DNA of 60,731 nucleotides, the filler included, from Basidiobolus ranarum (taxonomy: Eukaryota): NCBI GenBank assembly GCA_040143965.1. It is 7 parts of 7 records of this genome, joined end to end, with 100 filler letters (N's around TTAATTAATTAA, not from the genome) between each part and the next. Parts side by side here need not be neighbours in the genome. Positions count along the whole stretch, not along the records: positions 26,113 to 34,704 come from JASJQH010007827.1; 6 more parts are not named here. One strand, 5' to 3'. The translations under genes and the position numbers were made by a program. Within the stretch, counting starts at the first letter, position 1. The number at the start of each line of letters is the position of its first letter. Of this stretch, positions 17,321 through 52,173 are shown piece after piece. Below the pieces are notes generated by a model that was given only the letters and a program-made list of their open reading frames with translations, had not been told where the DNA came from and did no database searches.

Positions 17321-17420
17321 NNNNNNNNNNNNNNNNNNNNNNNNNNNNNNNNNNNNNNNNNNNNTTAATTAATTAANNNNNNNNNNNNNNNNNNNNNNNN
17401 NNNNNNNNNNNNNNNNNNNN
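17321..17420. other. Artificial contig linker
   Basis: N44-TTAATTAATTAA-N44. Confidence 0.98.
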
Positions 17421-20400
17421 CAAAATCCAAGAGCTTATTCTCATTGTGAATGGTAACAAAAGTCAGCTATTTGCCAAGTGTCAGTGCTATTAAAATTTTC
17501 AGATGTTTAGCAATTTTTCCACTATTAGTTTGCTGGTAAAGCATATTGATGTTGTTGAGTAATGTCTAATCAGTCAAGTATATGCTTATGTAGAGACTAA
17601 GCACAACAAGATTCTTGTATTTTTTGATTCTCATTATAGCTGGAATACAAAGCCTAAAGTATCTAAATAAAGGCATCCATATTAAATCAAATTCCTACAG
17701 CAATAAACCCAGTAATTTGCCATTCAAAAATTGCCAAATATTGAATAACGCATGCCGATTTGGGGATCAATCTTTTAACATGTATGAATACCATGAAAAT
17801 ACCATCAAGAAACCGCCATCACACCATCAAAATCCCTGGCAGAATGCAAGCCATCAATATTGCAATGGTTCTCTGATGGTTTTGCTTTCTGGAGGGTGGA
17901 TCCAATTTGGATCAATTCAATTTTATTTTTGTTAGGGTATTGAGGAGTGGAGAGTTCTATCCAATCTTAGCAACCAGGTGTTTATTGCTTTTCTCATAAT
18001 TTCTCACCACAGTTGATTGGCAATTGTGATTTGCCACACACCTGGTACAAGTGAGAACACTTGCAAGTTGTATGACTTAACCTAGTAATTAAACTACCTT
18101 CATGGCCAAATGGTTGTTTGGCTTTCACTGGTGATCTGAAAAGCCTGAAGTCATGTACTGTTTGCACACAATTGGCAATCAGAGAATAGGGTCAATATTA
18201 TTCATATTTGGCTTATGTATTGTTGATTCCCCATATTAAAGTTTTAACAAAATCATCCAAGTATAGATCATTGATCCAATACTGAAGCACTCACCATAGA
18301 GTTGATAGTATTACCAGTATACTAGATGGATATCAATACCAGAACCTGAAAAGACAAGGTTTCTTTGAGAACACATAGGAGCATGCATTTGCATTGGCTC
18401 TGGATGATCTCTCACTAAACAAATACACCATCGGAAAGGCTGGCAGACCATTAGTTTTAATTAACTTGAATCTTCCTCCTTCTGAATGGTAATCTGTTTG
18501 TATTTGGCTTATATACCATTGATTCCCTGACTTAGAGTTTTGATGAAATCACCTAAATATAGGTCATTGATCCAATACCAAAGTATTCACCATAAAGCTG
18601 ATGATATTACAAATATACTTGATGGATATCACTACCAGAATATGAAAAGTCAAGGTTTCTTTGAAAACACATATGATCATGCATTTGTATTGGCTCTGGA
18701 TGGTTTCTCACTGATCAAATATACCATTGGAAGGGCTTGCTGGCCAATAATTTTAATCAACTTAAATCTTCCTCCTTCTGAACAGTACAAGAGTCCTAAT
18801 ATTTTGATAGTATCCATCTTATTTGGACTTAAATCACTAATGCTGACAGGTAGCTTCTTGGAGCCTTCAATTGTGGAATTTGTATGGTTATCTAATAGGG
18901 CTCAGATGGGTGAATATTTTTTAAAAACTAATCGTATTTTATATATTGGTAGCCCTCCTGCCATTGGTGCACTTGGAGGTTTTTGTGTGCACAATCCACT
19001 ATCTTGCTGTAGATATTTTCAAATCAATGGAGTCTACTCTATCAGGCATACATATTACTGCTATCCAAATATGAAACTAAGCTACATGATTTTACCATCT
19101 AGAACCTGGTCAGATTTCAACATGCCTACTGATATCAAGTGACCAAATACTCAGTCTAACATCAAACCTGGTATTAGCCATAAGCCTAAGACTACATTGC
19201 TAAAGGGGTTCAGCTGGAGTTACAGCTTCCCATTAAGCACTATGCACTTACTATTCAACATCATCACAATACTACTTGCTCAGCTATATAGTGGAAGATT
19301 CAATTTGAATGAGCCATTTGAGACAGGATCAAAGTTTAAATCAATGAGAAAAATGCTTGAAAAAATCAAGATATTATTATATTTAACCAGGACTCCCATC
19401 AATATACACTCATCTAGGCATTGATTCATATGCAAAGACTGGAAGTATTGGATTTGTATATATTCAAGTGGTATCTTTAAAAGATTTCTGCATGTTAAGT
19501 ATTGGCAAAATGGGGAGTTGTTTGTGGATATTGTTAATATATTCTTATGGCATCATCTCACATTGGCAGATCTTAGGCAGATACAGTAACTGAGCAAAAA
19601 TCTTATAATTGGATATGAAAAACTTCATTACATGTTTAAATACAATAGGCTGAATATATGCCAGCATTCAATACATTCCCTGCTGCATATTTCTCAATTC
19701 TTAGAGATTATAGGCCCTTGCTATAAATTCTGGGAGTTCCCAATGGAGTGCACCTGTGATGAAATGATGCTCCATGTGCTATTGTCAGTACTACTGTATG
19801 CTAGTCTGATCAACAATGTATCAGCAAAATCTGTGATGGATGTGATGCAATGGGTTAAGGATACTCCAGAGTATATCAACCTTTCAACAAAGGGCTCTTT
19901 TCAATGTGCTCAAGGGTTTTTGCATTGTTTCTGTAAAATAACAGCAACAAAACCCAATCCATGAATGCAGAGTAAGTACCTTTGTTATTTGGACTAATTT
20001 GTTTGTGTGATAATCTGATAGTATTTGTAGGAAAGCTGCAAGAAAGACTTCTTAGTGAGACAGATTAAGATTTACAGTATCACCATTTTAGCAATGGGGT
20101 AATTTATTCAAGCAATGACTCATCTACTTGTGACATGACATTTGTTGACTGCAGGTTAGGGCTGTTACAGCTGAATTTTTTTATGGAAATTTGCCAAAAT
20201 CCAAGAGCTTATTCTCATTGTGAATGGTAACAAGAGTTAGCTATTTGCCAAGTGTCAGTGCTACTCAAAATCTCAGATGTTTGGCAATTTTTCCACCATC
20301 AGTTTGCTGGTAAAGCATATTGATGTTGTTGAGTTATGTCAGATCAGTCAAGTATGTGCATATGTAGAGACTAAACATAACAACAAGTGTCAATGCTATT

Positions 20401-21535
20401 CAAAATTTCAGATGTTTAGAAATTTTTTTACCAGTTGTATGCTGGTGAAGCATATCAATGTTAGTGATAAAAGTGTTTAGGGGATTTGGAAGTGTTTTGG
20501 AAAAGATTTGGATTTGTGAATTATTCACTTGTATTATTGAATTGAATATGTCCTTTTATAGTTTACTATGAAAAAGGACTATTGGACATGCTTAGATCAT
20601 AACAAACATGCCTGTTAAGCATGGGCAAAATATTGAAGTGAAATGGAGAAGTTATGAGAAAATAATGAAAATTGGTAAAAGTAATCTAATTAGTATTTCT
20701 ATGAATTACAGCAATAAACACTTGTTTTTGAATGGCAGAATTGATTGCTAAATAAGCGGAATATGAATAAACTAACTACTAAATAATTAGTTGCTATTTA
20801 TCTTATTTCAATAGTTGCTGAGTTATGTCCAATCAGCCAGGTATGAGCATATGTAGAGACTTCACAACAAGATTCCTGAATTTATTGATTCTCATTATGG
20901 CTTGAGTACAAAGCCTATGATATCTGAATAAAGGCATGCATATTAATTCAAGCTCCTACAGCAACAAACCCAGTAATTTGCCATTCAAAAATTATATTTT
21001 GCAAAAATGCCAGAAATATAATAATGCATTGTGAATGGTAACAAGAGTCAGCTATTTGCCAAGTGTCAGTACTATTCAACATTTAAGATGTTTAGCAAAT
21101 TTTCCACAATTGGTTTGCTGGCAAAGCATATTGATGTTGTTGAGTTATGTCTGATCAGTCAAGTATGTGCCTATGTAGAGACTAAACATACCAAGATTCT
21201 TGTTTTTTCTCATTCTCATTATGGCTGGTATATAAAGCCAAAAGTATCTTAATAAAGGCATGCATATTAATTCAAATTCCTACAGCAGTAAACCCAGTAA
21301 TTTGCCATACCAAAATTTGATTTTTGCAAAAATTGTTGGAAATTAATAGCACATGCCAAATATGAGCATCAATATTTTACCATTCATGAATACCATCAAA
21401 ATAACATCAAGAAGCCATCATCTCATCATTAAAATCCCTGATAGAAAGCAAGCCACCATTATTGTGATGGTTCCCTTTTGGTTTTGTTATATAGAATGAT
21501 GGATTTGATCCGGATCAAATTGTTTTCATTCTAGT
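17421..21535 (+). mobile_element. Degenerate, internally rearranged CACTA/EnSpm (Tnp2-type) DNA transposon
   Basis: Broken frames at 18200-19960 encode LALDGFSL...CWPIILINLNLPPSEQYK.NILIVSILFG, TMHLLFN, DWKYWICIYS and HSLLHI...IGPCYKFWEFPME, matching CACTA transposase blocks. Many stops, CpG depletion, and 3' segments repeated at 17421, 20195, 20815 and 21030. Confidence 0.75.
20465..20813 (-). mobile_element. Solo LTR of the resident copia family inserted in a CACTA copy
   Basis: Reverse-complement similarity to the LTR at 23929-24275. It interrupts the repeated CACTA segment gcatattgatgttg|ttgagttatg and has degenerate TSD-like flanks (gttag/gttgc). Confidence 0.65.
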
Positions 21536-21539
21536 TTTG

Positions 21540-23928
21540 GCTGAAGGATTCCAATTCGGAGTGTTTTTGAGCTTGAATTAGTCAACATGTTGTGCTACCA
21601 AAGAACCTGAGGTGATCTACACTTGGTTTTAATCCATATAGAGCTTCAAATAAAGTAGAATATAGTAGCAAGCTTTTTAGGCAGCTGTTTTTGATATTGA
21701 CTGCAGTGGAGACAGATTCCACTAGATATGGTACCCTAACTTCTGTTCATGTCATGTTGATCTTGCCACATGCTTTTCATCAAAAATCAAATATCTGCAC
21801 TGAATTAACTTCTGACTTTTGGAATCCAACATTCTGTAGGTCTTAGATCTATCTCAGTAACCACAAGATATGCATTATCTGCTTTTGGGTTCCAATTTAG
21901 AGTGTTTTTGAGCCAAAATTAGGCAATATCCTGTGTGACCAAAGTTCCTAAGGTGATCCTCACTTGGTTTTGAAGCATATTGGGCTTCAAATGGTGTATA
22001 AGTTTATAGCAGTCTTGTTTGGGCATCTGTTTTTGATATGGACTGTAGTGGACACAGATTCAGCCCAATATTGGTAATGCAACTTTTGATCATGTGACAT
22101 TGATCTTGCCATCTCCACTATTGTCCTATTAGCATGTTGTGAAAACTCTATTTTGCTGTGGAGTATAAGGAACAGTAGTTTGTTGCTTTATCTATGTTTA
22201 CAGCAGAAATTAGCAAAGTCTTCTAAGCAGTATTCTCCACCATTATCACTCCACAATACCCATATTTTTGAGCTGCTTCTTTCTGTACCTTTGCTTTGTA
22301 GTATTTGAACAGAGGTAAGGCTTCATAATTTGATTTGAGAAAGAATACCAAGTATATCTTGCTTTGTCTTCAATAAATGCCATTAAATACCTTTTGCTAC
22401 CCAGTTTGATTTTTTATTGGGCCCACATCAATCAAAATAAATCAGGGCAAAGTTCTGAGTGGATATGACCTCTCCAGCTCCCAAAAGTGGCCCTCAATGA
22501 GTTTACCCACTTGTGCATCCTTCACATCAATCCAAATTGGTAATATTTTAAATTCCTCGGCCTGAAACAAGCTGATTTTTGATCATTTAGGTCAGTTTTT
22601 AATCCCCAACATGGCCTATTCTTCTATGCTACATATGAAAGCTTATTTCTCTGGTTTTGGCCAAGTTTGCATACTCATAATGCTTCTTGTTGATTTCAAG
22701 CCTGTGTAAGTATTGAGTTTTGCTCCCAGTACCTGACTTGGTATTATCCTGCTCAGCAATAGTGCAACCAGCCTTGCTGAGCATGAAATTTAGTCCTTGA
22801 GCTGTTACTTAGCTAACTGATAGGAGGTACATGGCTATATTGGGTACAATGTACACCTCACACATTTTTACAAGGGTGTAGCTGAATTTTGGTCAAAACT
22901 GGGCACCGCCATGCCCTGACCTACTGCATCAAGTGCAGAGTCATCACCTAAGTAGACTTTCTTTGATTGGATGTATTTTAAGCTGGAAAACCAATCCTTC
23001 CTATTGAAATATGTTGGCAAGCTCCTATATCAATGTACCACATTTCTGAGTCTTCTTTAGTGGTTACTGAGAAGGTATACAAAAATAGAGGATGCCATTC
23101 AGTGCTTACTTGATTTATCTGCTCCAATTTAGCCTTTTGTCAAAAGTCCTCTTTCACAATCTTTCATTAAATTGCCGGGCTTCTTACAGTACTTCAGATG
23201 ATGGATTACCTATCAGAGGCACCATTATTGATGCCTGTTGTGCATTTTACAGCTCCAACAAGTACCTGATCAGCATTATTTTGCTGAGAATCTGATAGCC
23301 TAAATTCCTAATTTAAAAGCCTCGTTCTAACTTCTTCCATTGCTTATGCCTCTGATCTTAATTCTAGTGCACTTATGAGGCTCCCAAACTCATCAGGCAT
23401 GCTCCTAAGTAGTGTAATGACTATATCATATTCATTTAGAGGTGCCCCAATAGACAAGATCTGATAAACCTTGGCTTGGATCTGATCATATCATTAACCA
23501 TTGAATCTCCCAAATCCGTGTGAATTTCAAATAGTTTTTGTCTAAGACAAAGCCTATTAGTTAGACTATTGATCTCATATAGTAGCACAAGTATTCTCCA
23601 AGCAATTAGGGCAATTATGGCTAAGCTTATGTGCCTCAATGGAAAGTCTCTGAGTTATAGACAAAGAGCAGAGGGTGCCTCCTCAGCCTCCTCTGAAAGG
23701 CCAGAATAGCTTCTAGTGGACTCTTTGGCTCTATTTCTGTTTCCATAACAAATCCTCAATGGTCCTTGTCTTCACAAACCATTTGCATCTTGAAGAATCC
23801 CAAGGTGAAAGTCCTCATCATCAAATCTTTCTGTGGTAATAAATACATTGTAATAGTTCTGGTAGACATTCATCTAAGAGCTAGCTGGGGGCTCATGGCA
23901 TGGTTTAAGTGCTTACAGGATTTGGAAG
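21540..23928 (-). mobile_element. Degenerate Ty1/copia retrotransposon 5' part (LTR end, PBS, gag, protease, integrase; integrase segment duplicated)
   Basis: Minus-strand fragments: gag ERFDDEDF..FKMQMV.EDKD and ITLLRSMPDEFGSLISALELR; protease WYIDIGA...KKVYLGDDSALDAVGQG; integrase-like blocks. Segment 21560-21770 recurs at 21890-22110. Confidence 0.75.
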
Positions 23929-24275
23929 TGTTGCAGTTAGGTAAATAGTGACTTATTATTTTTTGGTTAGTTTATTGATAATCTAATTATTTAATGCTCT
24001 ATTCTGACATTTGAAAACATGTGCTTATTGCTATGATTGGTAGAAATATCAGTTAGATCACATTTACCAGTTTTCACTAGTTACTCTAAACTCCCCCAAA
24101 TCAGCTCAAATTCTCATGCATACTTTTCAGGCATGTTTATTATGATCTATGCTTGGCCAATAGTCCTAATTTGTAGTAATCTATGAATAGGACATTTTCA
24201 AATAAATCTAAGTGTCTAATTCACATAGCCAAATCTTGTCTAAAACACTACTAAATACCCTAAACACTTATATCA
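23929..24275 (+). mobile_element. Copia 5' LTR (TG...CA)
   Basis: Begins TGTTGCAG and ends TATCA. Followed by PBS-like GGTTAAGTGCTC and a gag relic. Homologous to 20465-20813 and 24943-25290. Confidence 0.7.
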
Positions 24276-24299
24276 GGTTAAGTGCTCTAAGCTAGCTGT

Positions 24300-24900
24300 T
24301 AAAGGAATAGCTACCAGTACTATTACAGAAGTTTTTGTATTAACAGAGAAGTTTGATGGGCAAGACTTTCATCTTGAAAAGATCAAGATGCTAGAAGACA
24401 AAGGCCTTTGGTGATATGTTACAAGAGAGGAAATAGAGCCAAAGAGACCACAAGAACCTTTCCTTGCTTTTGACATGAAGCAGAGGAAAGCACTCTCACC
24501 ACCTTGTTCACATCACAGAAACTCTCAATTGAGGCACACGCACTAAGCCAAAAACAACCAAACTGCTTGGGAAACACTCAAGGGACTATACAAGACTAGA
24601 AGTCTTGCTAATGGGCCATATCCTAGGCAAAAGTTGTTCTCAATTTGGATCAGTTCCAATGATTCTTTAGCTATTTATGAAAATTGGATGAAAGCTGTGA
24701 CAGATCAGCTCTCATCCACTGGAGATCCTCTAAATGAAGAAGACTTAGCCATGATATTTCTTGAGAGCCTATCAGACAGGTTTTGGAGCCTTGTCATAGC
24801 CCTAGAATCAAGATCAGAGCTATTAACCATGGAATACATTGGTGCCAGGCTTTTGAATGAGGATTTAATGATATCTAATTCTTAGCAACTGGTACCAATC
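24300..24900 (+). pseudogene. Copia gag relic
   Basis: TEKFDGQDF...KIKMLEDKGLW and QLSSTGDPLNEEDLAMIFLESLSDRFWSLVIALESR, typical of copia gag; contains stops. Confidence 0.75.
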
Positions 24901-24942
24901 AGGCATTTTTTGGAGCTGTAAAACATGCCACAGGCCTCAGTG

Positions 24943-26012
24943 TGCTGAAGTATTTAGGGGATTTGGAAGTGTTTTGGACAAGATTTGGATTTGTGCAATA
25001 TACACTTAAGTTTTGTCAATTCAAATATGTTCAATTTATTGTTTACTATGAGATAGAACCATTGTACTTGCTTAGATCTTAACATACATGCCCATAAAGC
25101 ATTGGTGGAAATTTGAGATTACTTGAGGAATTTTGTGAAAATTGTGAGAATTAGTAAAGTGATCTCATTTCATAATCCTATCAATAAAACAATAAGCACA
25201 CATTTTGAATGGCAGAACTGCGTGCTGAATAATCAGAATATGAATAAGCTAACTACTAAAGAATGAGTTTTCATTTACCTAATTGTAGCATTTCCACTCA
25301 ACTAATTATTTAGTATTTCTCATAAACCTCAATTATATCTTGATAATTCAACTTGTTCTTTAGCTAAGGCTTTGGTTAAGACTTCAGCAATCATATCTTC
25401 ACTAGTGCAATAGACAAGTTCAATTCTATCATTCTCTATTGCTTCTTCAACAAAAGATGCCTGATATCTATACATTTTGTTCCGGCATGAAATATAGAGT
25501 TTTTGGCTCATGCAATATAATTTTCATTATTTTCAAATGCGGTAATAGAATATTTTTCCATCAATACTGAGTCTGTAAATAACTTTCTTAATCACATTGC
25601 TTCTTGTGTAATAGCAGAGGTAGCTATATACTCTGAATCTGTAGTGTTAAACACTGTGCTTGGTTGCTTCTTATTATTCAAAGTTATGGCTCCATAACCA
25701 TCAAAAAGTGTCCCCAGTGGTTGATCCTCTGTCATCATAGCTTCTTCCCCAGTCTTTATTGGCCTCTTCCCACTGCTTCAGCAATATCTGGATGTATTTC
25801 AACCATTGCTTGCATTAGGCTATACACCATGGATTGGGAAGAGAACTCCTGGCTTTGATTTGAGTTGCTTTGGGTCAAATTGGAGCAATTGTAATTGATT
25901 TCACATTGGAATCCATTGCTGTTGATAGAGATTTGCTTTTCTCCAGGTTTAAGCATTTCAGGTTGCGTAGTATATATCTAGACTGGATCAGCATGATTTT
26001 CGGATTGGGTTT
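24943..26012 (-). mobile_element. Copia 3' end: RT C-terminus and RNase H relic (25329-26012), PPT (25291-25303), 3' LTR (24943-25290)
   Basis: QSMVYSLMQAMVEIHPDIAEAVG and IELVYCTSEDMIAEVLTKAL (RNase H ADxLTK motif). A purine tract AGTTGAGTGGAAA lies directly before the LTR TG on the minus strand. Confidence 0.8.
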
Positions 26013-26112
26013 NNNNNNNNNNNNNNNNNNNNNNNNNNNNNNNNNNNNNNNNNNNNTTAATTAATTAANNNNNNNNNNNNNNNNNNNNNNNNNNNNNNNN
26101 NNNNNNNNNNNN
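26013..26112. other. Artificial contig linker
   Basis: N44-TTAATTAATTAA-N44. Confidence 0.98.
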
Positions 26113-26564: not shown

Positions 26565-27759
26565 TTAATTCAAAAATGAGCACTCATAGAAAGCTTTTCC
26601 GTTGAACACTAACTTCTTCTCATCAATCACTACTTCCACATGGGCATCATCGTAATATTGATACACATATGGCTTCGTAAAGAGTGTTTGGATCACCTTT
26701 CTTAGCAAATAAGGAAGCTCACTCAAAACGTCGATTTTGGCGATCAAAAATTGTGACTTGACGGTCATCTCTGCGCAAAATTTCTCTTTCTGCAAAGTCT
26801 CTCCTAGCCATGTATATTTGATTTCTGTGGGAACCTCATATTTGGTCTCTGGGTCAAGTTTCGTTGTTACAAATCTGGAGGTATTATCCACTGTTACTGC
26901 AACAAGTTCATCGCTCAACACAAATGCGCCCTGAGTAACGTCCGTGCAACCATAGGTTCTGGGGGTTTCAAATTGAAGCATGCTTAGGGAAGCATTTTCA
27001 TTTTCGAAAGAAATAAGATTACATTTGGAAGCAACTTCATGTGGCTTCAAACCAAGAAGGGCGTGAATAAAGATGCCTTCTCCGATTAGCTCTTCTTCCT
27101 TATTATCGAAGATCACGGTGCCAGTAACTTTCCCACTAGGGTAGAATTTATGACAAATGAAATTGTTGCTGTTGATTTTGTTAAAAAATGTTTTCCCCTC
27201 ACCAATCTTGTAACCGCAATCAACGGGTACAAATTGAAAGTGAACGCTGATGCTTTTCAATGCGAGATCCACTACCATCTCACGATTTTTACCATGCTGA
27301 ATTGACATACCATCCAGATTTACGGACAATTTGTCATCACTAAGTTTGAAAGAGCGGGAGGACCGATTGGCAGATTCAAATTTGTGGATATCTCCTTTAA
27401 CATATCGTGCAGAGGTTTGTATGGTGGGAGATAGACTGCAATGAAAAGTTTTAGTTATTCCCGCGAAGAGGTTTATCGTCTATTGTAGACTTACCCTATG
27501 TTTGAATGTGCAAGCTGAACAGACAAAAATCCACCTTCCCTGAGGTGAATATAAAAGGTCACGGTCTCTGTAGCTGAGCCAGAAGCTAGACTCCACTTAA
27601 GATCATCGGTGGTTAACTTGCTAACTAAGGGGAGACCTTTTTCTTTGGCGATATCGCAAGCTAAATGTAGGGCTATAAGGAATTTCAAGTGGAGAGTTAG
27701 AACCGTTGCCATGCCAGATATGCTGCCTGAAACCGAGTTGGATACATACCAGATGACAT
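26565..27759 (-). CDS. SVF1: Survival factor 1 (Svf1, lipocalin-like ceramide-binding protein), 3 exons
   Basis: ATGTCATCTG|gtatgt...ctaac...tag gives MSSALHLACD...DDLKWS...ATETVTFY...QLAHSNIG. Later IHALLGLKPHEVASK, IDVLSELPYLLRK and TKPYVYQY...FYECSFLN match Svf1 motifs. Confidence 0.85.
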
Positions 27760-28755
27760 AGTCTGAGAAGGAAAAAATTACAAAGATGTAAGCGCAAGTG
27801 TTCTGTCCTATTTATGGTGAAACTTATTAGGTTTGAGTAAAGTTTATATATGCGCTCAGAACAATGGGACACAATTTGCCAAATCGGGGCTAAGTGGATT
27901 CTCATACGGGAGTGCCAATTTTACATGTTGGACAAATAGCATCAGTCATTGGTAGAGGTACAAACGACATCCATTGTACCACTCACCATGGCCACCAGCC
28001 GGTGCATATAAGTGGATGTTGGCAGTATTACGATCACTGACAAAAAGGATGCTCCATGTCATGTTGAAAAGTAATGATTTCACCACCACGATATGTTTCT
28101 CTTGCCACGAAATGATTATATGTATGACTGAAGCCGACATCACATGTATGGTCTCAGCTACTCTGCAGAGTCATTAGATGGAGAATAGGAATGAATTGAT
28201 CTCAACAATTAAAATTATCAGCTTAAAGTGGACCAATGTAAGGCCCCATTTCATGGCAGTATATCCAGTTTTCTTGAAAAGATTTTCATATCTTCAGCCT
28301 CTTTTGATTTAACTAGGGGCATTCTATAGCCTGCGATAAGAGTTGCTTAATGTGAGCTGTACTCGGGCCTGAACATAACCAGCCAAGCATGCCAAGAAAT
28401 CCCAATCTAGTTTTATTGCCAACTTTACCCAATTCGATGTTTACCAAATGGTATAATCGAAAGATACTGGATGACATCAGAAACGCATAAAGCTCGTTTC
28501 CCTCATTTGTTATGCCCATCAAGCTTAGCGAACTGGATAATCAAACAAGCTTATGGATGATCACTTGGAATTGGCCAACTTATTTAAAATACGAATTTCG
28601 AGCATAACTTAACCAGAATTCCCCATGACGTATCAAGGAAATTGGAAAGTCTACGTTGCGTAATTGTCAATTTGTAATTACATCTCAGGGTGCCTTCTTC
28701 GCTCATAGTGCTTCTGCTCAATACATTTTCATTTCGACTGTCTTCTTTATCAAAT

Positions 28756-29802
28756 ATGGAACATTTTCCTTTACATTGGGGTAAGCCCCGTCAAGAAAAC
28801 GCTTCTGCGGATAACTTCAACTCTTATCCACTGTATAAAAGCCATCCTACAACTGCGCAAGGTCCCATCACACATACTCAGTACGTTTTTAATAGGGCAT
28901 TTACCCCGCTAGTTATACTAACTGTGCAACAATCTCTATAGACAGCCAATTGTTACCGGTACTTCAATTTTAGCAATCAAGTACAAGGATGGAATCATGA
29001 TGGCTGCAGATTGTCTTGGTATGGAGACTTGACCTGATTTTAAATACACTTCAGTGAATAATAGATAACAAAAAAATTTAGGTTCTTATGGAAGTTTGGC
29101 ACGTTTTCGCGATATTGAACGTCTGACCAAGGTTGGTGACTATACTATTCTTGGAGCTGGTGGTGACATCTCTGATTATCAATATACTAAGAACTTGCTA
29201 GAAAAACTCATGTTAGTTCATATTCACCTCACCTAAATTCCTCTTATTAAACTTTTATATATTCTTAAGGATCAAGGAATACTACATGGATGATGGACAT
29301 GTTCTGGGTACACCTCATATTTACGAATATTTAAGCCAGGTTATGTATGCGCGTCGTACGAAGATGAATCCTCTCTGGAATGCCTACATTGTTGGTGGTG
29401 TCCACAAAGGTACAGGGTAAGTAAAATACATTTCAAATTGATGGTTCTTTATAATTTTGTTCTTTGATCTCTAACTTCTATATTATTAGATTCTTGGGCT
29501 TCGTTGACCTTCAAGGCACTACATATCAATCTAGCACTATTGCAACAGGCTTTGGAGCTTATTTAGCTCAACCTATTCTCCGCAAAGCTGTCGAAGGAAA
29601 AGAAGAGACATTGACTGAAGAGGAAGCTATTAAAATCCTTGAAGATTGTATGCGTGTTTTATTCTACCGTGATGCTCGCTCTCTCAACAAATTCCAACGT
29701 GCCAAAGCAACTGCTGAAGGTGTTGAGGTCACTGAACCTTATTCTTTAACCACAAACTGGAGCTTTGCCGAAGGTATTCGTGGATATGGTTCGCAAAATT
29801 AA
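28756..29802 (+). CDS. PRE4: 20S proteasome subunit beta-7, 5 exons
   Basis: HTQ|[36 protein letters not shown]...GAGGDISDYQ...RRTKMNPLWN...MRVLFYRDARSLNKFQ. Confidence 0.97.
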
Positions 29803-31414: not shown

Positions 31415-34075
31415 TTAACAAGTGGATGCAGGCAAATCTGCAAACACATCCAGTAACGGTGAGACTTCGAAGTTAGTAACCTGATACAAATTGTTAACTG
31501 GTTGAACTTGAAACGTGAGTGGAAAACCAATCTGTTCCCTAGTTGCCTCATCTAGTTTGACCCCAATCGAGCTCGCCTTCAGGTCTACTCGATAGAAGTT
31601 ACAAAATGATGTGCCCAGATATTTTCTCGATTCTTGGGTTACCACATAGATATTGAACATAGAGAATTCGCTCGAATCCCAAGAGATCGTCAGAATGATT
31701 TGATAGTCAGGCTTCGGATCAATTCCTCCAAATAGCGGTCCCTTCACGGTGATATCAGAGCTTTTGAGGTTGAGAGGCTCGGTCAGTTTGGGGATGTAGA
31801 ACAGACGATCCAATAGGCTGGTTGGATCTGTCTTCTCTAGGTTTCTTAACTGGTGTTCCGGATAGATTTTGATCTCACCAATATGGAATTGATGCACTGT
31901 TGTGTCTGGCACCAAGGTTAATCCTTTAATAATGATAATGCCATCAATCTGGGTGACTCGACAGCCATCAAATTTACCAAGATCAAACACCGCCACAGAC
32001 CAGTTTGTTCCTGGTATCTCCTTGACATACATGGGAGCAGCAGGTGAATTGGATTCGAACAGCTTGCTTGCTACAGCTTCACCACTAGGTGACAGGAACA
32101 CATAGCGATCATCTTCTAAACGTATTCTGAGTAATAGATTCAATTCCATCTTGTTATTTAGGATCTGTTCGTGATCATATACGAAGGAGAGCACAGTGCA
32201 ATCTGAGGTCAAGATGTTGGTATCGAATATGGGGAATAAGGTAGCTGCATCGTCAACAAAATCTTGGGGAATGGTCTCCACCTCTAAACGATAGCTTGAT
32301 CCGCCATAAAAACTGGTTTCGCTGGTTACCGAGGAATTCAAGATCAACGGCGCAGATGACAGCACTTCCGTTGCCCAACTGCGATATGTAGGTGTAACAC
32401 TTTGTTGGCTGAAGTTCAACCAATTCCCTTTATGAACAGGCTAGATGCGTCTTTAATACCAGCAAGACTGTGTAATAGACATAGGTAAAGTTATTACCTT
32501 CCCATGTATAGCAAACTGAGTGCCCACTCCTTGATCAAAGTTTGTAACAAATCGAGTATCTCCTGGAGCTATATGGGGCTTTACAAACTGTGAGACACAA
32601 TGATGATTGACTTGTAAAAATAAGGCATGAGTATTATTTGTCATGGACATAGGAGAAGCCGAGGCCTGTCACTTGATCATTTAAAAGAACGGTAAAGCAC
32701 ACTCACATCCATTCCCGTGCCAGAATTTAGACTCGTTATCTACGAAGTTTCGTCCCTGGAAGTTTTCATATGTCCAAGCTGGAGCAAATATAGCGGCCGA
32801 TATAGACGCGTCCGCAATAACGTGGAGTGCCTAAAGAGTCATGGTCTCATTAAGTTGCTGAATTCCCAAAAGATAATCGTTGAATGGATAACAATCACGT
32901 GTGGGTTACTACCTTGTAAGTATCAAACATTCCACCGCCGTAAGTGTTTCGTCCATGGACATCAATTCCAGCAAAGACATCAAATTTGCGATTTTCACCG
33001 GCCTTTATACATGATACTTTAGGGTACTGCCTACCCCATGTGTAATTTAGGAATATCCCATCGCACACTTCAAAAAAAGGGAAATTCAGCAGATTCAAGC
33101 GATTTTGCCAAGCCAAAAGCCCTTCCACCGTTACTGAATCGTACCTAATGATAGTGGACCAAATAGATAATATTAAGGTGAGTGGGTGTTGGAAAAGACC
33201 TTGTCAACTATTGGTACAATTACCAAATAACTTTGGAATGCGGGATTTTTTTGTGCATTTGCTCAGTCAGTATCCTGATGAAATTGATCATGTGCACAGT
33301 ATCCTCCTCAAGGTTGGAGAACACATTCTCAATATTGAGTAGCCAGCCATCAAACCCATAGCACTCGGCTATGTTGGCTGTTTTCGTTTATAAAAGACTG
33401 AACATTAATATTATTTTCCAGATTTTGAATCGTTTTCATACAAACAACAGTTCAAGAAACATTTTACAAAATAGGATTACGAACCTAACTGATTTGCGTA
33501 AAACTCTACGTTCTCGAGCAACTTGATGGTTTCACGAGATCCTTCTTCCCATTCAGTGATAAATGTACCCTATATAAAATGTATCGTTGAGCCTCATTTC
33601 AAAAAAATCTTTCGATTGATACTAACCAACACAGGAACTCCGTTCTTATGTGCCGCATTGATCCAAGTAACAGGTGGGATTGTAACTCGGTTATGAGAAA
33701 AATAAACGAACATATCCAGATACTGCCAGTATTGAAGATTGTATTTATTTTCCAACGCTTCACCTTGCACTGCAGCATCCTCATTATATCCTGCGAGAAA
33801 AGATGGTTAAATAAATGTGAAGGAAAGAAATCGCTTCATCACTTAAAACGTAAAGGATCCTCACCACCAGCCATATCATGGCACATTAAGACCTTTCCAG
33901 ATATCTTATTCCAATTGTCGGTGAATTCTTCACGCTCAAGCTTATTACGTTCTATTCGAGTAGCCAGAGGAACTGGTTTAGCAAAGGTTTGCCAAAAATT
34001 ATCCTTAGTGCTATCCCACTCGTCTAGCTCACTTAGCGAGCTAAAAGGGCGCGATTTTGGTGTAGACTCTGTCAT
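31415..34075 (-). CDS. Cytosolic endo-beta-N-acetylglucosaminidase (ENGase, GH85), multi-exon
   Basis: CHDMAGGY, FVYFSHNRVTIPPVTWINAAHKNGVPVLGTFITEW, FDGWLLNIEN (catalytic N-x-E), YDSVTVEG..WQNRLN, DGIFLNYTW, GIDVHGR, FAPAWTYE, FVTNFDQGVG. Confidence 0.95.
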
Positions 34076-34262
34076 TTTCTCTTTAACCTGGCTAGGAATC
34101 CGCTCGCTATATACCAAATAACGGTCAGTAATAGAAGGAATTTACTTAGTAATTGATCCCAATACGCTGACGGTATTAGAGAAATTAACCACTATTCGTT
34201 ACTAAATATTTAATAATTTTCAAATCATGGCATGTGTAATGTATCAAATAGCAATCACGTGT

Positions 34263-34412
34263 AGGTCCAACAGAGCCGTTGATGATATGTGTGAGAACCT
34301 TAGTCTGTAATTGGCACTTAAATATCAAAGTATCAATTTAGATCTAAGCCACCTGAATCTCTCAATTACATTAAAGTTCTTAAAATCTTACCTGTACTAT
34401 GGGTATCCTACA
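34263..34412 (-). ncRNA. Candidate omegaRNA scaffold / structured right end of the Fanzor element
   Basis: Directly downstream of the Fanzor exon. Nested stems on the minus strand: TGTAATTG/CAATTACA, GCTTAGAT/ATTTAAGT (with G-U pairs), and AGGT/ACCT enclosing the hairpin TCAACG-gctc-TGTTGG. Confidence 0.4.
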
Positions 34413-34465
34413 GCGATAACTGAGGAGGAAGAGAGTTTGATTCTTTTTGATTCTTGGCTTTCTTT

Positions 34466-34704
34466 CTACTTGCCTTTTCTTTTACCTGGCTTTTGGGGCA
34501 TAAATCGGTCAGGACGGATACCTTTTTCTCTAAGCGAAGTTAAGATATGACGGAAATTAAGTACTGCAGAAAGGTCTCGGCTCCAAAGTCGTATAATGCT
34601 ACTGGCTGGCGTGGTCTTCAAACAATTTTGGTTTGTGCACCTATTTGACGAAAAAATATTAGCTTTCATTTTCTTTTCTCTCTTTTTGTATCTCGGACAG
34701 TACC
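34466..34704 (-). CDS. Fanzor (eukaryotic TnpB-like RNA-guided nuclease): last exon plus preceding intron, truncated by the contig end
   Basis: A 63-nt GT..GCTAAT..AG intron (34703-34641) is followed by (R)CTNQNCLKTTPASSIIRLWSRDLSAVLNFRHILTSLREKGIRPDRF. This is a zinc-ribbon C-x4-C, a RuvC-III W(N/S)RD..A..N motif and a G.RP.RF tail, as recalled for fungal Fanzor1 C-termini. Confidence 0.8.
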
Positions 34705-34804
34705 NNNNNNNNNNNNNNNNNNNNNNNNNNNNNNNNNNNNNNNNNNNNTTAATTAATTAANNNNNNNNNNNNNNNNNNNNNNNNNNNNNNNNNNNNNNNN
34801 NNNN
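34705..34804. other. Artificial contig linker
   Basis: N44-TTAATTAATTAA-N44. Confidence 0.98.
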
Positions 34805-34924
34805 CGTGCCTATGGTGGGAGTCGCTGAGGTCACTGTGTTCGTGAGCGTATCGTTCGCGCTTTCCTTATTGAGGAGCAAAAGACTGTCAAGAAAGTCATC
34901 AAGTCTCAAGCTGGAAAGAACTAA
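34805..34924 (+). pseudogene. RPL34: 3' end of 60S ribosomal protein eL34 with an in-frame TGA (pseudogene, sequencing error or recoding)
   Basis: [38 protein letters not shown], versus canonical [31 protein letters not shown]. TGA at 34826-34828. Confidence 0.85.
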
Positions 34925-43391: not shown

Positions 43392-43491
43392 NNNNNNNNN
43401 NNNNNNNNNNNNNNNNNNNNNNNNNNNNNNNNNNNTTAATTAATTAANNNNNNNNNNNNNNNNNNNNNNNNNNNNNNNNNNNNNNNNNNNN
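43392..43491. other. Artificial contig linker
   Basis: N44-TTAATTAATTAA-N44. Confidence 0.98.
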
Positions 43492-46400
43492 AGCAGCTCT
43501 GAAATTTGGAATCTTTTGGTATGCTGGTTTTCCTATGAGATTTCTACTTTCATGTGCCCAAGCAATATTGGGTTGTTGTAGAGGCTAAGTGATCCAAAAC
43601 AAATCTGTGTTGCTAGATTATTATTCCAATGTTCCTATGTATGGTGTGGGATTGATTGAAACCCCATATGAGAACAAATAGAGGGAGCAGCATGTTGTTG
43701 TAGCTCATGCACAGGATTCTGAGGATGTTGTATTATTATTGAGTGACTCTCTAAGCATTGACTAGCTGCTTCAGAATGCTGCATATATTGCAATATTGAA
43801 GTGTTATTGCTTATCATGGCCTTTAGAGCAATTTTGTAGTTTTACTAATGATTATATACAAATCATTATGGTTCTCTGCCTGATATTTGCTTGTGTAATA
43901 ATCAGACTTGTCCCATTTGCAAAGGCTCCTGCATTATGAAACATCCATAGTTTTAGCAAACTGGTGGCCAATCACAGCGCATGATGATGGAGCAATCTGC
44001 ATTATGATACTATTAATCAGGATTGCCTGATTCATCATTTTAAAATCAGTAAATTGTTCATTCAATCATGTAAGCTTCTATATGGATGAGAATATGAGCC
44101 AATTGACCCATATTGTGCCAATAAGGCTGCACAAGCTTTCATTGACAAAGGTTTTTCATTTATTTTGAGTGGAAATGCTTGTATTAATAGGTTAACGTTG
44201 ATATTTTTGATAATAAACAATTTCACCCCATCAGTGATTCATAAAGACATAAGTAATTGTGATTCCACTGAAGCAATTTATGCTGTGTTTAACTGTTATC
44301 ATTGCAATTGTTCAAATTGTGCTCAAGAGTAAAGATATGACAATACAAATATTAACAACAGCATTCAGCAGTTGCCCAGGTTTCAAGTGGTACTTGCAGA
44401 ATTGCTTTGGTTATTTTTGTTATCTGCTTGATATTTTCATGGGAGAAACTTTGCTTGAACCTCTGTGCTTGTAGGTTTGTTTCACTCTGCTTACATTCCT
44501 CTACCTTGGCCAGCATGAGATGTGGCCTGAGGTAAATATGCTGTGGTATTCATTGGCTTGTCTGGTCTATTTTTGGCTTGTTTATGTCCAAGTCTCTCCT
44601 TTAGATGTGAAACCTTCACCAAATTGGTCAACCAGCCATTTTTGCTTGTGCACAGTTCTATATGTCAACCCAGAATGTTTCCATTGAGTTTTGTGCTAAG
44701 CAGTAATTATTGCTTCTTCAGCCACAGTTGAAGCTTCATCTCTTATGACTGGCAGTTGCTATGATTGCATGGCAGTACATGTTGGAGCATATTATCTACC
44801 TTGAGGTTTGTGTTTGGCAGTTCTTGCCTCTTCAACCATAGTAGAAGCTTCATTTCTTTCAGCTAGCAAAGAACTCTGTCACATGGCAGAACATGTTGGA
44901 ACATACAGGAACTTATTGTCTACTTTGAGGTTCATGTTTGACTGTTGTGGTTTCTTCAAGCTCAGTAAGGGCTTCACTATCTATATCTCACTCCTGTTGT
45001 CTTGGTCTCATGGGAGTAAACTTTGTAACAAATTGCTATCTTAATAGTTTGCTTTCAGGTGTGAAATCTTCATCTGGCAAAGTGGATGGTTCCATAACTC
45101 TGGCAGTTGGCCTTTGTTGCTGTCATATGGTAATACATACTCAACTGGTAAGTCTGTCTGGTGGCACACTGCTTGGAGCTGACTCTTCTCCAGATGTAAA
45201 AAGCTCACTGGTTGGTTTGGTTGAATCAGGCAGATTCTGTGCAATACTGCATGGTATTGTGGGCTGTCCTCTTTGTGGTTCTTCATTTTCTGCTTCCTCT
45301 CCAACAAAAATGGGAAGAACATCACAACTTCTTCCAAGCTGGTTTTGCTGTTGAGGTGTACTGCTAGCTTATGAGCCAACTTGTTAGGCTCTTGCCCTTG
45401 TTGCAGGTACTATCTCAACTACAGTGGTGAGTTGTGTAGGCTCATTTTGTCACAATACGGAACTGGAAAAGGACTAGAAACAACAACAAGAGGCTAGAAG
45501 GCAGCAGGGTACTTTGGTGTAGACCACAAGACAACAGAAGTCTGGATGGGGAAGATACTTTGGCCACAATCTTTATTGATAACTGGTGTTCATCAGAATG
45601 AGGTCTGATCAAGAAATTCATGGAGCTTAATAGATATTGCAGGGTGAGACACAATATACTGAATAGGCAATATATTGAGGCAAGTTCAAGTGTTGAGGTG
45701 TTGGGGACTACAGGCACCAATACGCAGAGAGATGATGTAAGTATGATGTAAGTATGATCTGGATGATGTAAGGATGATCTGGTGACCTTCCAGGCAAGGT
45801 CTTGGTGGAAATACACTATGTGTGGGATGACATGATTGGTTAGGTTTCATTGAATGTTCCAAAGAACATTACTTCTGCATAAGGTAACCTGGATGAACTA
45901 ACACAAGCTTGCCAAGAAAGGATGGAACAGCAGATATGATGTCACAATCTAATAATAGAAGTGCTCAATTTGCAGTAGATGAGTATGCCAAGATCAGAAT
46001 CATGACATATCTTTTGAAACTGATACCTTGTCAGGAGTCTCTTCAATTTGAAGTGATCTATTGATTTTGTGACATGGTCTTGACTGCTTGAATTTGCCTT
46101 CGGAAATATCTTCTAAATCAATAAATTGTGTTGCTTTTCTCCTTACACCTCTGATGATTACAGTTACCATAATGTCCTGAAATATTGCTTTAAACTCTGC
46201 AACCTCCAGCATCAGTTGGTGTCCCCTCAAGTATAAACACAATTGGAATTGTGACTTTGCAGACTCAAAATCAAAGTTGTTATTTCTTTGTCCATATTTT
46301 CTATGCTCATGTGCTTTATTGTATAATTTCTTGCAGACTTTTGAAGGCATGAAAATATGGTCTTCTCTGCATAGCAGAGTCAAAAGTTGTTCCACTTTTG

Positions 46401-47550
46401 TCTAATATCCCCTTCCCCAGCTTGTGTTAAGTTGATCAATAATTCCCATATATATAAGCAAGAACTCATAGTGCATACTTTGGCATCTGTAAAATCATCT
46501 GGTCAACACCACCTACACTCTATATGACAGTGCACACAAAATTTTGGAAGTGATGGTTTCCTGTCCTAAAGTAAGTTGTGAATCAGGGGGAATCTGCATT
46601 GCCAAGATATGTTGCTAATATGTATATCAATGATGTTAGATTATATTGGTTACAATCAGAATTAGGGATATTTATATATTATTGGTCAAAATGTCAAAGT
46701 AAATTTCCTTTAGTGTGATCAAGCATAATGCATTCTGTATTGAGCTGTTTTGATATGTACATCTAACATATTGATCTAGATCAAACTATGATAAACTTTG
46801 TTGATGCAGTTTGCTACATTATTCCCATGCAATGAAACATAATTGAAATAATTAGGATAATTGATTCACACAGAAATTTTATCATTCAGAATGTAGGGAA
46901 TTTTACCATGATAATTGAAATTCTAGGAGAAATATTTCATTTGGGATGTAATGAACTATATCATGCCAGCTCAATACAAGATTAGTAGCATGTTCTCCAT
47001 CTACTCTAAATGGTCATTGCCAATTAGTTCAAAATCATCTACTGACTTTCCTATCTCCACCTTAGAAGCTATATTTAAGAAATACTTTGGCTCATATACT
47101 CCAGTACCTTCCAGAAAGCTGCTGGTCAATTTGTTTTGTTACTACAAAAACTTTTGACTCAGAGTTCAGTGCACTATTAATGGAATTCAAAGTGTAAGAA
47201 GCTATTCATACCAGGCTTCAACTGAGTGAGAATTATCTAGCTTCAGTGTTGAAAGATGTTGAAGGTGCCTGGGGCAAAAGATTTAGACACAACAATTTCT
47301 TTGCATTTCCTGGAGTATTTCCTAATTGAATTCATATCAGAAGTATCATTAAAACATTTCCTGTAGGAATTAACAGGTGCAAGAGCAACCAAAAGATATT
47401 CTCTTCAGGCAAATACAAAGCTCACTGTGAAAAGTTCCAGCCTTTGACAGATTTGGAAGGAAACATTGTTTGATTTGGTGGGCCACATCCAAGGAGACAA
47501 TGTGACAAAAGGCTTGGGCTGAGAAACATGCACCATCTAATTGAGATTGC
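43492..47550. mobile_element. Degenerate CpG-depleted repetitive element(s), class unresolved
   Basis: Near-total CG absence, broken coding-like frames, and an internal ~114-bp tandem coding repeat at 44678-44978. Confidence 0.45.
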
Positions 47551-47554
47551 TATC

Positions 47555-50500
47555 AATTAAAGCAAAAAACACATATTTTTCAATGTTAGAATTGAGTGCT
47601 AACTAATCAGAATATGAATAAATAACCACTCAATGATGAATTGCAATTTATTCAATTTCAGCATTTTCACTGAACCATTTATTTTGAAATTCCCTTAAAC
47701 CAAACTTACATCCTAATAATTCCCATTGTGCTTAGGCAAAGGTCTGGTCAAGATGTCAGCAATCAATTCAGTAGTAAAGTAATTGACATGTTTAATTATA
47801 TTATTTTTCATTGCTTCTCTTACAAAATGATACTTAGTATGTATACACTTAAATCTAGCATGAAATGTGAGGTTTTAGCCAATGGAATACAACAATGAGT
47901 TTCTTCAAATACAGTAATAGCATATTTGTGCATGTATCCTAAGTCTGTAAGTAACTTCCATAACTACATAGCCTCTTGTGTAGTTGCAGAGGCAGCCATT
48001 TACTCTGCTGCTGTAGTGGAAAGTACTGTGGTTAGCTGCTTCTTACTATTCCAAGTGATGGCTCCATTACCATAGAGAAAGGTGTACATAGTTGTTGATC
48101 TTCTATTATCAAGGTTTCTTCCCCAGACTGCATCACTATAGCCTTCAAAAGTGGCAAACTATTCTATAACTAGATCTGCAATTACTTTGGAATACTTGAA
48201 TATATGTTTTACTCCAGTTTTAAGCTTCAAACTTGGATTTTAACAATATTGGCTGATAGTTCCCACTGTTACAGCAATGTCTAGACACATTCCAACCATT
48301 ATATCTATTAAACTACGTACCATGGATTGATACAATAACTTCTGGTTTTGACTCTGAGTCACTTGAGGCCAAATTGGATCACATTTGATTAATTTCACAT
48401 TGGTATTCAGTGGTGTTGATACAGGGTGGCTATTCTCCATGTTAGAGTATTTTAGGATATCTAGGATGTATCTGGACTGAAACTACATGATTTTCAGAAT
48501 GGGTTTATCTCTTGATTTGGATTACAAGGAAATATCTAAATTCACCCATATCAGCCATCTCAAATTGGTTTGATAAGCTTTTTTTGTCTGATTCAATGCT
48601 TCTAAATCATCTGTGGCTGTGATCAAGTCTTCAACATACAGTGCTAAGATGAGAATCCCACATTCTGTTGTTTTCATACAAGTACTGTGATCTGCTGTGC
48701 ATTGTTGGAATACCTGTGATTCCAAAAAAAGCATCTTTCTTGCCATACCTTGCCCTGGGTGCTTGCTTAAGTACATATAGCAGTTTTTGCAGCTTACAGA
48801 CCATATCAGGGTGTACTGAGTCAAACAATTCAGCTGGTTGCTCCATATAGATCACTTCTTCATGATATCTACTCAGAAATGCTGCTTTTACACTTTTCTG
48901 ATGAAAATCAAGATTACAGATGGCTGAGAGTGCTAGGATTGATGCAATGTAGTACACCTTAGCTACTGGAGAAAAGGTTTATTAAAACAGCTCCTGGAGT
49001 CTGGGAATAACCTTTTGCCTCTAATCTTGCTTTGGATCATTGTGTGGTTCCATCAGCTTGGTTTTTGACTTTATAGACCCATATGCAGCAAATTAGCTTT
49101 CTCCCTGATAATAGAGGATTTAGAACCCGTGTTTTATAGTGTTCAAGCAACAAAACTTGTCAGACAATGGTTTTCCCATTTTGTTCATTCTGCATGTGCA
49201 GAGTTTGATGCAATGTCTGTGGCTTGTCACAGAATGCTGCATAAGCATATACATCATCATTTGAAGTGTTATACCTATTTCCTGGCTGATCTCTCCTTTT
49301 AGAAGATCTTTGAGGTCCTGATTAATCCTCAGATGTAGTGGGAGCTGGAATTTGGTTGTTTTGAGCTCAGAAGCAGGGGGAACTTTTGCACACACCTGCT
49401 GAATAGGTCTGATTGTGTTTTGCAGATCAAAAGCTGTGATTTACTGTGAAAAACTTGCTCTCTCATCAAAAATCACATCTCTGCACTTAGTTAACTTCTG
49501 ATCTTTGATATCAAACAGTTAGCAGACCTTAGAACCATCACAGTAACCAAGAAATAAGCATTTAGTCCTCTTGGGCTCCAATTACAGTATTGATGAGCTG
49601 GATTTAGGCAACTAGTTGATGCTACCCAAGATCTGGAGATGATTCACACTTTGTTTTGATTCATATAAGGCTTCAAATGGATTGGAATTTTGTAGCAATC
49701 TTGATGGGCATCTGTTGTTGATATTGACTGCAGTGGAGTCAGATTCAGCCCAATATTGGTGATCTATTTTTTGATCATATGCCGTTGATCTTGCCATCAC
49801 CATTCAGGCCCACCTTGCACATTCTGCAACTACATTTGCCAAAGAGTATATGGTAATGGAGTCTGTTGCTTATTTGCAGTCTTAAAAAAAAGCTAGCAAA
49901 GTCTTTAGAGCAGTATTGTGCATCATTATCCCTTTTTATTAACCTTATTTTAATTCTTTCTTTAACATTCTTTTGTGGTGCTTAAATATAGCAAAGGCTT
50001 CAGACTTTAATTTGAAACAGAATACTCAAGAATATATTATATGTTATCAATTAAGGTCATAAGGTATCTTTTCCCACTAAGTGGGATGTTTGTCATTGCC
50101 CCCAGAAGCCAGAATGAAACAGGGCAAAATTCTGATTAGATTTCTATTCCCCAGTGCCTGAAAAGGGTTGTCTGCAATGAATTTGCAACCTTCCCACAGA
50201 TCCAATTTAGTGATATTTTTGATATCTTAACTTGAAATAGGCTGATTTTGGATCACTTGGGACAGGTTTTTTGAGGGTTAGTATTGTTTAGATATGTGAT
50301 ACAGCACCCAGCCTTGCTGCACACAAAGTTTAGTCCTTGAGTTGTTGCTCGGCTTAATTGGAATAGATTCTTGGCTATATTTGATATTGATTACATCAAC
50401 CAATTTTGCAGATGGAGTAGTGGAATTTCAGTTTAAATTGAGCACAAGTATGCCCTTACCAACTGCATCTAGTGCTTAGTTATCATCCAAGCAGACTCTC

Positions 50501-51105
50501 CTTGCTTGGATTTGTTTTAAGCTGGAAAACCAATCTTTCTTGTTTGACATATGCTGGGAAGCCCCTTAATCACTATGCCATGTTTCTGAGTTTTCTTTGT
50601 TGGTTACTGATAGTGCAGACACTAAAAGATGATCCCTTTCAATGCTTACTTGATTTGCCTGTTCCAGTATTAGCTTTTTGGCAAAAATCCTTTTTCTGCA
50701 TTCTCTGATTAAAAAGGCTGGTTTCTTGCAACACTTGCAGATGATTGATTTCTTATTAGGTGTACTATTATTGAAGCCTGTTAGATGTTTTACAGCTACA
50801 TAAAATGTCAAATCTGTGTGAATTTGCCAAGAATTAGATTTCATTGATTCCTAATTCAAAGGTCTTACAGCAACATTTTCCATTGTTAATTGCTTTGATC
50901 TTAATTCTAGGGCAATGTTGAGGTTCACAAACTTTTCTGGCAGGCTGCCAAGTAGAGTGATGACTAAGCCATCTTCATTTAGAGGTGCTTCAATGGATGA
51001 CAGCTGTCCTGCCATAGTTTTTATTGGACTTATAACATTGAGCATATATCAACAAAGTTGATATGAATTGAGAGTAATTTTAACCTAAGATACAGCCTAT
51101 TTGCC
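47555..51105 (-). mobile_element. Degenerate near-complete Ty1/copia retrotransposon (gag-PR-IN-RT-RH plus partial 3' LTR 47555-47663)
   Basis: gag LNEDGLVITLLGSLPEKFVNLNIALELR; zinc knuckle CKCCKKP.....EC; integrase YWAESDSTAVNINNRCPS; RT VKAAFL...EEVIYMEQP...VCKLQKLLYVLKQAPR and LALYVEDL; RNase H ADILTRPLP. Domain order IN-RT-RH is diagnostic for copia. Confidence 0.9.
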
Positions 51106-51109
51106 AGAC

Positions 51110-52073: not shown

Positions 52074-52173
52074 NNNNNNNNNNNNNNNNNNNNNNNNNNN
52101 NNNNNNNNNNNNNNNNNTTAATTAATTAANNNNNNNNNNNNNNNNNNNNNNNNNNNNNNNNNNNNNNNNNNNN
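52074..52173. other. Artificial contig linker
   Basis: N44-TTAATTAATTAA-N44. Confidence 0.98.

Follow-up and report, generated by a model that had tools for sequence, protein, structure and literature searches.

The locus described here raises the question of whether a short open frame at the very end of a Basidiobolus ranarum contig is the last exon of a Fanzor1 gene, and whether such a gene would still be working or would have been left behind as a relic. The window, i.e. the whole stretch of 60,731 nucleotides that was analysed, consists of seven contigs arranged in descending order from 8614 down to 8558 bases, with six identical linkers between them (Table 1). Adjacency across a linker is biologically meaningless. 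The frame lies at the high-coordinate end of the contig at 26113-34704, and position 34704 is the true end of that contig.

The same contig carries host genes. The GH85 gene is on the same strand as the Fanzor exon, 390 bp downstream of it, and corresponds to K7432_011784 (P0070) of B. ranarum, which it encodes exactly once spliced. Its introns measure 57-107 nt and have variable donors (GTGAGG, GTTAGT, GTTCGT, GTAATT, GTAGTA, GTGAGT and GTAATA). Just past the linker, on the next contig, the end of an ORF was seen at 34829-34924 on the plus strand, with 29 protein letters followed by a stop; it resembles the tail of a small, conserved protein and is unrelated to the Fanzor exon.

Table 1. Features at and around the contig end, given in window coordinates
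Feature	Position	Strand	Remarks
Svf1-like lipocalin protein, host gene	26565-27479	-	PF17187 at 2e-41; PF08622
Proteasome subunit exon, host gene	29455-29802	+	PF00227
GH85 endo-beta-N-acetylglucosaminidase, host gene	31415-34075	-	7 introns; PF03644, E=9e-97
Spacer between Fanzor relic and GH85 gene	34076-34407	-	Expected site of an omegaRNA scaffold and transposon right end
Former coding tail	34408-34465	-	Behind the stop, frameshifted; ORF 34408-34539
Terminal Fanzor1 exon	34466-34640	-	Last base of the split codon, then 57 codons and TAG stop
W-S-R-D motif	34574-34585	-	D22 at 34576-34574; S20 at 34582-34580
Putative 63-nt phase-2 intron	34641-34703	-	GTACTG donor, CTAAT at 34662-34658, T-run, AATAG acceptor
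Sole surviving base of the upstream exon, G	34704	-	Presumed second base of a split Arg codon (xG/G), by analogy with L002
Contig-joining linker, N44-TTAATTAATTAA-N44	34705-34804	.	Artificial; an unrelated contig lies beyond
All linkers in the window, N44-TTAATTAATTAA-N44	8615-8714, 17321-17420, 26013-26112, 34705-34804, 43392-43491, 52074-52173

Identity of the exon at the contig end

On the minus strand, the G at 34640 completes a split codon, positions 34639-34469 give 57 codons (CTNQNCLKTTPASSIIRLWSRDLSAVLNFRHILTSLREKGIRPDRFMPQKPGKRKGK) and the stop is at 34468-34466. The motif series pointed out in the initial annotation, CTNQNC-x11-LWSRD...GIRPDRF, was found to be exact in its x11 spacing and in its placement on the minus strand at 34640-34466.

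A phmmer search of the 57-residue peptide (P0002) against all PDB chains matched the extreme C-terminus of the Fanzor1 protein PpFz1 (9cf0; E=7e-7, chain residues 1207-1256 of 1259), and residues 980-1028 of the 1032 in the SpuFz1 chain (8gkh) at E=0.044. When a family profile of 31 sequences was used instead, made up of the window peptide and 30 of its 67 relatives (the short ones and K7432_011095, P0003), the E-values were 1.1e-20 for PpFz1, 3.2e-10 for SpuFz1 and 0.46 for GtFz1. The PDB chains with a stretch passing on its own were Fanzor1 only. WD40 rows in the profile search were discarded as repeat noise, since none of them has such a stretch.

The relatives were obtained with an exhaustive phmmer search of 1.84 billion representatives, which gave 67 proteins at E<=1e-3, the best at 7e-23. 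In the long members the match was always at or near the C-terminus of the protein. Further relatives belong to Coemansia, Dispira and Dimargaris (Kickxellomycotina) and to Helicostylum, Cokeromyces and Rhizopus (Mucorales). A full-length relative from Coemansia (P0017, 807 aa) matched PpFz1 at 1.3e-79, and the first exon of a gene from a soil metagenome, L002, did so at E=5.6e-136. This L002 exon stops at SpuFz1 chain residue 978, and the alignment of the window exon opens at residue 980.

Pfam and NCBIfam gave no family for the 57-residue peptide or for its 78-residue extension, the sole match being Exog_C below the cut-off (E=0.03-0.06), and a gathering-score match to PF07282 (TnpB / OrfB_Zn_ribbon) was absent from the window fragment in Pfam. 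PF07282 (Cas12f1-like TNB) was above the cut-off in none of the ten longest relatives either; four of these ten had sub-threshold matches (18.5-23 vs 26.3 bits), located just upstream of their aligned part. Divergent eukaryotic members, and a domain of which one half is present, would be expected to give such misses, in the fragment as well as in the long relatives. PF26935 is precomputed for all six of six long relatives of K7432_011095. The silence of the Pfam and NCBIfam models is what could be put forward for a chance open frame, or for an unrelated zinc-finger protein that is neither Fanzor nor TnpB. Against this stand the 67 relatives, with C-terminal matches in the long ones, and the restriction of own-stretch PDB matches to Fanzor1 chains, and we regard such an origin as exceedingly improbable. 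Sequence comparison identifies the exon as the terminal exon of a Fanzor1 gene, and the proposal of a Fanzor C-terminus made at the outset is upheld by the single-sequence and profile matches alike.

Of the TNB zinc ribbon, the exon has the second Cys pair (C-x4-C), with C1 at 34639-34637 and C6 at 34624-34622. The first pair reads CPxC in the relatives, and its expected position in the window gene is past the contig end. In the phmmer alignments, D22 aligns with the Asp of WNRD in both PpFz1 and SpuFz1. Positions W19, N20, R21 and D22 are each at least 90% conserved in the alignment of 31 sequences, and an Asp occupies position 22 in 58 of the 59 motif matches found among the 67 relatives. 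These 59 matches comprise WNRD (49), WNQD (3), YNRD (2) and one each of WNCD, WNRN, LNRD, YDRD and WSRD. The residue before R-D is Asn in 57 of the 59 and Ser in one, the WSRD relative P0036 from Dimargaris; the window copy has Ser as well (S20). This Asn is a clade-level conserved residue outside the catalytic triad. An AlphaFold2 model of the exon peptide shows a single long helix at residues 12-38, with pLDDT >90 for residues 21-40. D22 would be the third RuvC catalytic residue, on the RuvC-III helix after the TNB domain, and its position in the fusion chain suggests that it corresponds to D606 of SpuFz1. The alignments agree with the earlier remark that the third catalytic Asp is kept, with SRD replacing the usual NRD.

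The proposed intron and the contig edge

Family homology sets in precisely at 34640. The 63 nt between this position and the last base of the contig are in frame and stop-free (YCPRYKKREKKMKANIFSSNR...), which means that the sequence by itself does not demand splicing. In the tblastn comparison, the read-through (PRYKKREKKMKANIFSSNR) was without the family's P.V.CHGLL. It does have P-R-x-x-x-R at the family spacing, and ungapped tblastn extension reached this point for 5 of 13 queries; the motif was taken as a chance occurrence in a Lys/Arg-rich stretch.

The same codon was compared in 29 metagenomic loci that encode relatives. The coding sequence is continuous there in 27 of them, and the nearest two to the window exon (L001 and L002) are interrupted exactly at the split codon. 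In L002 the exon ends with ...CAT GGC CTT TTA AG, a 59-nt intron follows (GTAAGT...CTCAG), and the next exon begins with G TGC AAA AAC. An Arg codon (AG/G), the same codon as in the window, is interrupted here by a phase-2 intron, and the lengths are 59 vs 63 nt. In addition, among the 31 aligned fragments, seven or more show residues immediately ahead of R-C that are non-homologous and look like intron sequence (FFSRC, LLFRC, YQYNRC and SSNRC, for example), whereas six others have CHGLL there (CHGLLRC). The intron position appears from these comparisons to be common to a subset of fungal Fanzor1 genes.

If the 63 nt were coding, the protein would read ...PRYKKREKKMKANIFSSNRCTNQNC. The open, stop-free frame and the ungapped extension to P-R-x-x-x-R are compatible with this, and the NCBI model of K7432_011095 likewise takes SSNR as coding. 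The conserved P.V.CHGLL is nevertheless absent, yet over the following 50 residues the identity to the very same relatives is 45-60%; L002 has a real intron at the exact codon, and the architecture of CTAAT, T-run and AG is present. We consider unspliced coding very unlikely, and the read-through was rejected.

The two borders of the proposed intron are not equally firm. The acceptor at 34641/34640 is well supported. The donor, at contig bases 2-3, is uncertain; the intron could be longer, and the GT there a coincidence. Its 63-nt size and weak donor fit the introns of the GH85 gene. Taken from the window alone, the split codon xG/G is compatible with Arg, Gly, Trp or Ser (TCG). A phase-2 intron splitting an Arg codon, as initially annotated, is thus matched by L002 at the exact codon, and for the window the donor and the Arg are proposed by analogy. 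We infer the donor site, as well as upstream exons that would lie beyond the contig end.

Copies in the assembly and the state of the window copy

The best BLASTP match of the window exon was K7432_011095 (191 aa, contig 9463), with 90% identity, and K7432_012806 (P0004; annotated as partial, contig 7205) was 83% identical. Both are on other contigs of the same B. ranarum assembly as the window exon and are therefore paralogs. They bear out the earlier suggestion of a multicopy element. The window itself holds one Fanzor copy only: no other Fanzor pieces were found in it by tblastn with 13 relatives, and a weak match at 27819-27920 (E=0.17) was dismissed as chance.

Both paralogs keep WNRD and both are incomplete. 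The model of K7432_011095 has ...KRKFGEDAV joined straight to SSNRYTNQNC, with Tyr in place of the first Cys, and leaves the family frame after PQKPG. It aligns with PpFz1 in two blocks, 1092-1128 and 1206-1253, and the approximately 77 residues between them, with the RuvC-II Glu and the first half of the zinc ribbon, are absent; either the copy has an internal deletion or the gap is an artefact of the gene model. K7432_012806 starts 8 residues into the exon and is one residue short in the catalytic helix. With K7432_011095 as query, no Basidiobolus relative of at least 336 aa was found in a word-prefiltered search that depends on gene models. The NCBI models of the paralogs are fragments named 'hypothetical protein', so that the present finding is useful for their annotation.

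The window copy differs from both paralogs at I16, S20, I41 and G56. K7432_012806 runs on past the position of the window's stop with an undisrupted tail (...KRKSKQKESQESNNLPPQLSL), and an NNLPxQL tail closes this protein and three Coemansia-type relatives. The window codon aligned to a Gln of K7432_012806 is TAG, after which KESQES follows in frame. The remainder, ...ESNSLPPQLSL with its stop at 34410-34408, is in a frame other than that of KESQES. A 10-nt tandem direct repeat is present at 34453-34444 and 34443-34434 on the minus strand (GAATCAAA and two more bases; the two units agree at 8 of 10 positions), and this duplication accounts for the frameshift in the tail. The alignment of K7432_012806 with the window DNA falls into two frames, at E=4e-25 and 8e-5.

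The CpG observed/expected ratio of the exon was 0.87 (7 CpGs in 174 nt). For five of the window's contigs it was 0.66-0.80, the level of the host genes, and for the contigs at 17421-26012 and 43492-52073 it was 0.07 and 0.03, with a TpG excess of 1.33 and 1.42. The two CpG-poor contigs look like the product of methylation-driven decay of transposon-rich DNA. They contain few long ORFs, one of which, at 18531-19142 in the contig at 17421-26012, had a sub-threshold match to Transposase_21. The initial annotation was right that the exon has a normal CpG content when compared with the two depleted contigs. This means that the copy escaped whatever depleted those contigs, and it says nothing for youth. 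The accompanying suggestion of a young insertion or a domesticated copy found no support: the copies are only 83-90% identical at the protein level and each has its own defect. In the window copy, Ser has replaced Asn, a stop stands where K7432_012806 continues, and the 10-nt duplication shifts the frame of the tail. A protein divergence of 10-17% among the copies argues against youth despite the normal CpG content.

The exon is the terminal Fanzor1 exon of one of at least three copies in the assembly, and we consider this copy, with moderate confidence, to be most likely a decaying relic, not a working or domesticated gene. The third Asp is retained, the element is multicopy and the tail has lesions; the window copy would, by this reading, have lost its function. 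Some features run counter to decay. The Asp, both cysteines and 52-57 codons of the open frame are intact. The surroundings are those of host genes (Svf1, proteasome subunit, GH85), unlike the CpG-poor transposon contigs. The characterised proteins PpFz1 and SpuFz1 end a few residues after RP..F, shortly past the aligned region, so the nuclease may be unaffected by the stop, which precedes the frameshift. The occurrence of WSRD in the Dimargaris relative also means that the Ser may be tolerated. Variants of the third position can be active according to the available text of PMC11423790, in which GtFz1 has Asn and the SpuFz1 D606N variant is more active. Together with the normal CpG content, these features would suit a Fanzor1 gene that is intact, perhaps active or domesticated, continues past the assembly break and tolerates the Ser and the short tail, with the exon as its 3' end. 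Such a gene would, however, have to be reconciled with the divergence and the separate lesion in each copy, with a stop and a frameshift in a stretch that is coding in the paralog and ends in the Coemansia-type motif, and with the failure of the K7432_011095 query to find a long Basidiobolus Fanzor protein. We hold an intact gene to be possible but unlikely.

The copies could also be 3'-only or internally deleted, non-autonomous derivatives, consisting of the last exon and the omegaRNA or right end, that are kept for their transposon end or guide-RNA module and not for a nuclease. For none of the three B. ranarum copies is more than a 3' piece known: K7432_011095 joins its 1092-1128 block to the last exon with the intervening residues skipped, and the partial K7432_012806 begins inside that exon. 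The gap in K7432_011095 may nevertheless be the gene-model artefact mentioned above, and in an assembly this fragmented, contig ends are frequent. Moreover, Rfam, folding and blastn gave no sign of a structured or conserved RNA in 34076-34560. In Rfam at E<=1, nothing scored above threshold as an omegaRNA, and the one match was snoR83 at E=0.7 (19 bits vs a cut-off of 40). The RNA fold of 34300-34560 had z=0.14, with 108 of 200 shuffles folding equally well. When positions 34076-34704 were compared by blastn with the 29 metagenomic loci, which hold no close copies, the similarity was within the coding part only, and blastn found no second copy of this region, which comprises the 3' 240 nt and a 390-nt spacer, in the window. 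A non-autonomous derivative is, in our judgement, improbable. A bolder version, in which the three copies are 3' modules of internally deleted, non-autonomous Fanzor elements that are kept in unmethylated, gene-dense DNA and still provide a nuclease encoded at another site with transposon ends or omegaRNAs, seems a little more doubtful again; if it were true, the recurrent assembly break at the intron and exon would mark the boundary of the module.

Relation to known Fanzor systems

The best solved match of the exon is Fanzor1 of Parasitella parasitica, PpFz1 (PDB 9cf0-9cf3), described in Xu et al. 2024 (PMC11423790, available text). The window exon aligns with its C-x4-C and the RLWNRD.AAVLNFR.IL..LRE...RP..F that follows, and the paralog K7432_011095 also matches the block before RuvC-II, ...KKKFGADAV in PpFz1. 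The two differ in WNRD vs WSRD in the window, and the comparison covers the last ~57 residues, with the FRI insertion outside it. SpuFz1 of Spizellomyces punctatus has a similar C-terminus (CTNPNC...WNRD...RP..F), but as a single sequence it is matched more weakly than PpFz1. A zinc ribbon followed by the helix with the RuvC-III Asp at the C-terminus is also found in TnpB (IS200/IS605, IS607) and in Cas12f, and the sub-threshold PF07282 matches of the relatives point in the same direction. In contrast to TnpB and Cas12f, the window gene has a putative spliceosomal intron and a eukaryotic host; TnpB or Cas12 chains did not appear in the PDB searches, and neither Pfam nor NCBIfam matched the fragment to a TnpB model.

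As described in the available text of PMC11423790, the Fanzor RuvC triad consists of two Asp and one Glu: the Glu is on the loop that precedes the TNB domain, and the second Asp is carried by an alpha helix. In SpuFz1 the triad is D383, E541 and D606, and the helix with D606 follows the TNB domain. The same source places the guide RNA at or beyond the 3' end of the ORF, with a length of 75-150 nt, and PMC10530073, in the text available, states that it reaches farther downstream in Fanzor than in TnpB. By homology, an intact member of the B. ranarum family would be a eukaryotic TnpB homologue carried by a transposon and acting as an omegaRNA-guided RuvC DNA endonuclease. The protein would form a complex with RNA made from the 3' end of the very element that carries its gene, the guide of this RNA would direct it to matching DNA beside a short motif, and the DNA would be cut by the D-E-D site of RuvC. 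The share of the window exon in such a protein would be the last two zinc-binding cysteines of the TNB and the helix with the third catalytic Asp.

Fanzors have already been reported in thousands, from fungi and other eukaryotes, with introns and in many copies; the available text of Jiang et al. 2023 (PMC10530073) gives 3655 clusters across 22,497 assemblies, with as many as 122 copies in a single genome. Within searchable full text, supplements being outside its scope, no paper pairing Fanzor with Basidiobolus was found. The exon is an ordinary addition to a known family, and knowledge of the Fanzor1 family as such is unchanged by it. What is added is a Fanzor1 family in Basidiobolus (Zoopagomycota), a probable conserved phase-2 intron position common to a soil-metagenome relative, three differently damaged copies within one genome, and a pointer toward a possible intact Basidiobolus Fanzor1.

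The soil-metagenome relative L002, to which L001 is near-identical, is 53% identical to the window copy in the last exon, in addition to the shared AG/G intron. Its upstream exon has the composition of a complete Fanzor1, with DPGRRD, DEFRTS and CPSC...HGLL. Unlike in the window, the whole gene is intact and WNRD is kept, and the DNA similarity is limited to the coding sequence. This apparently intact Fanzor1 gene extends over 1259-3264 of the locus, with its last intron at 2941-2999. Two ORFs in different frames overlap near 1300, and a further intron is probable there.
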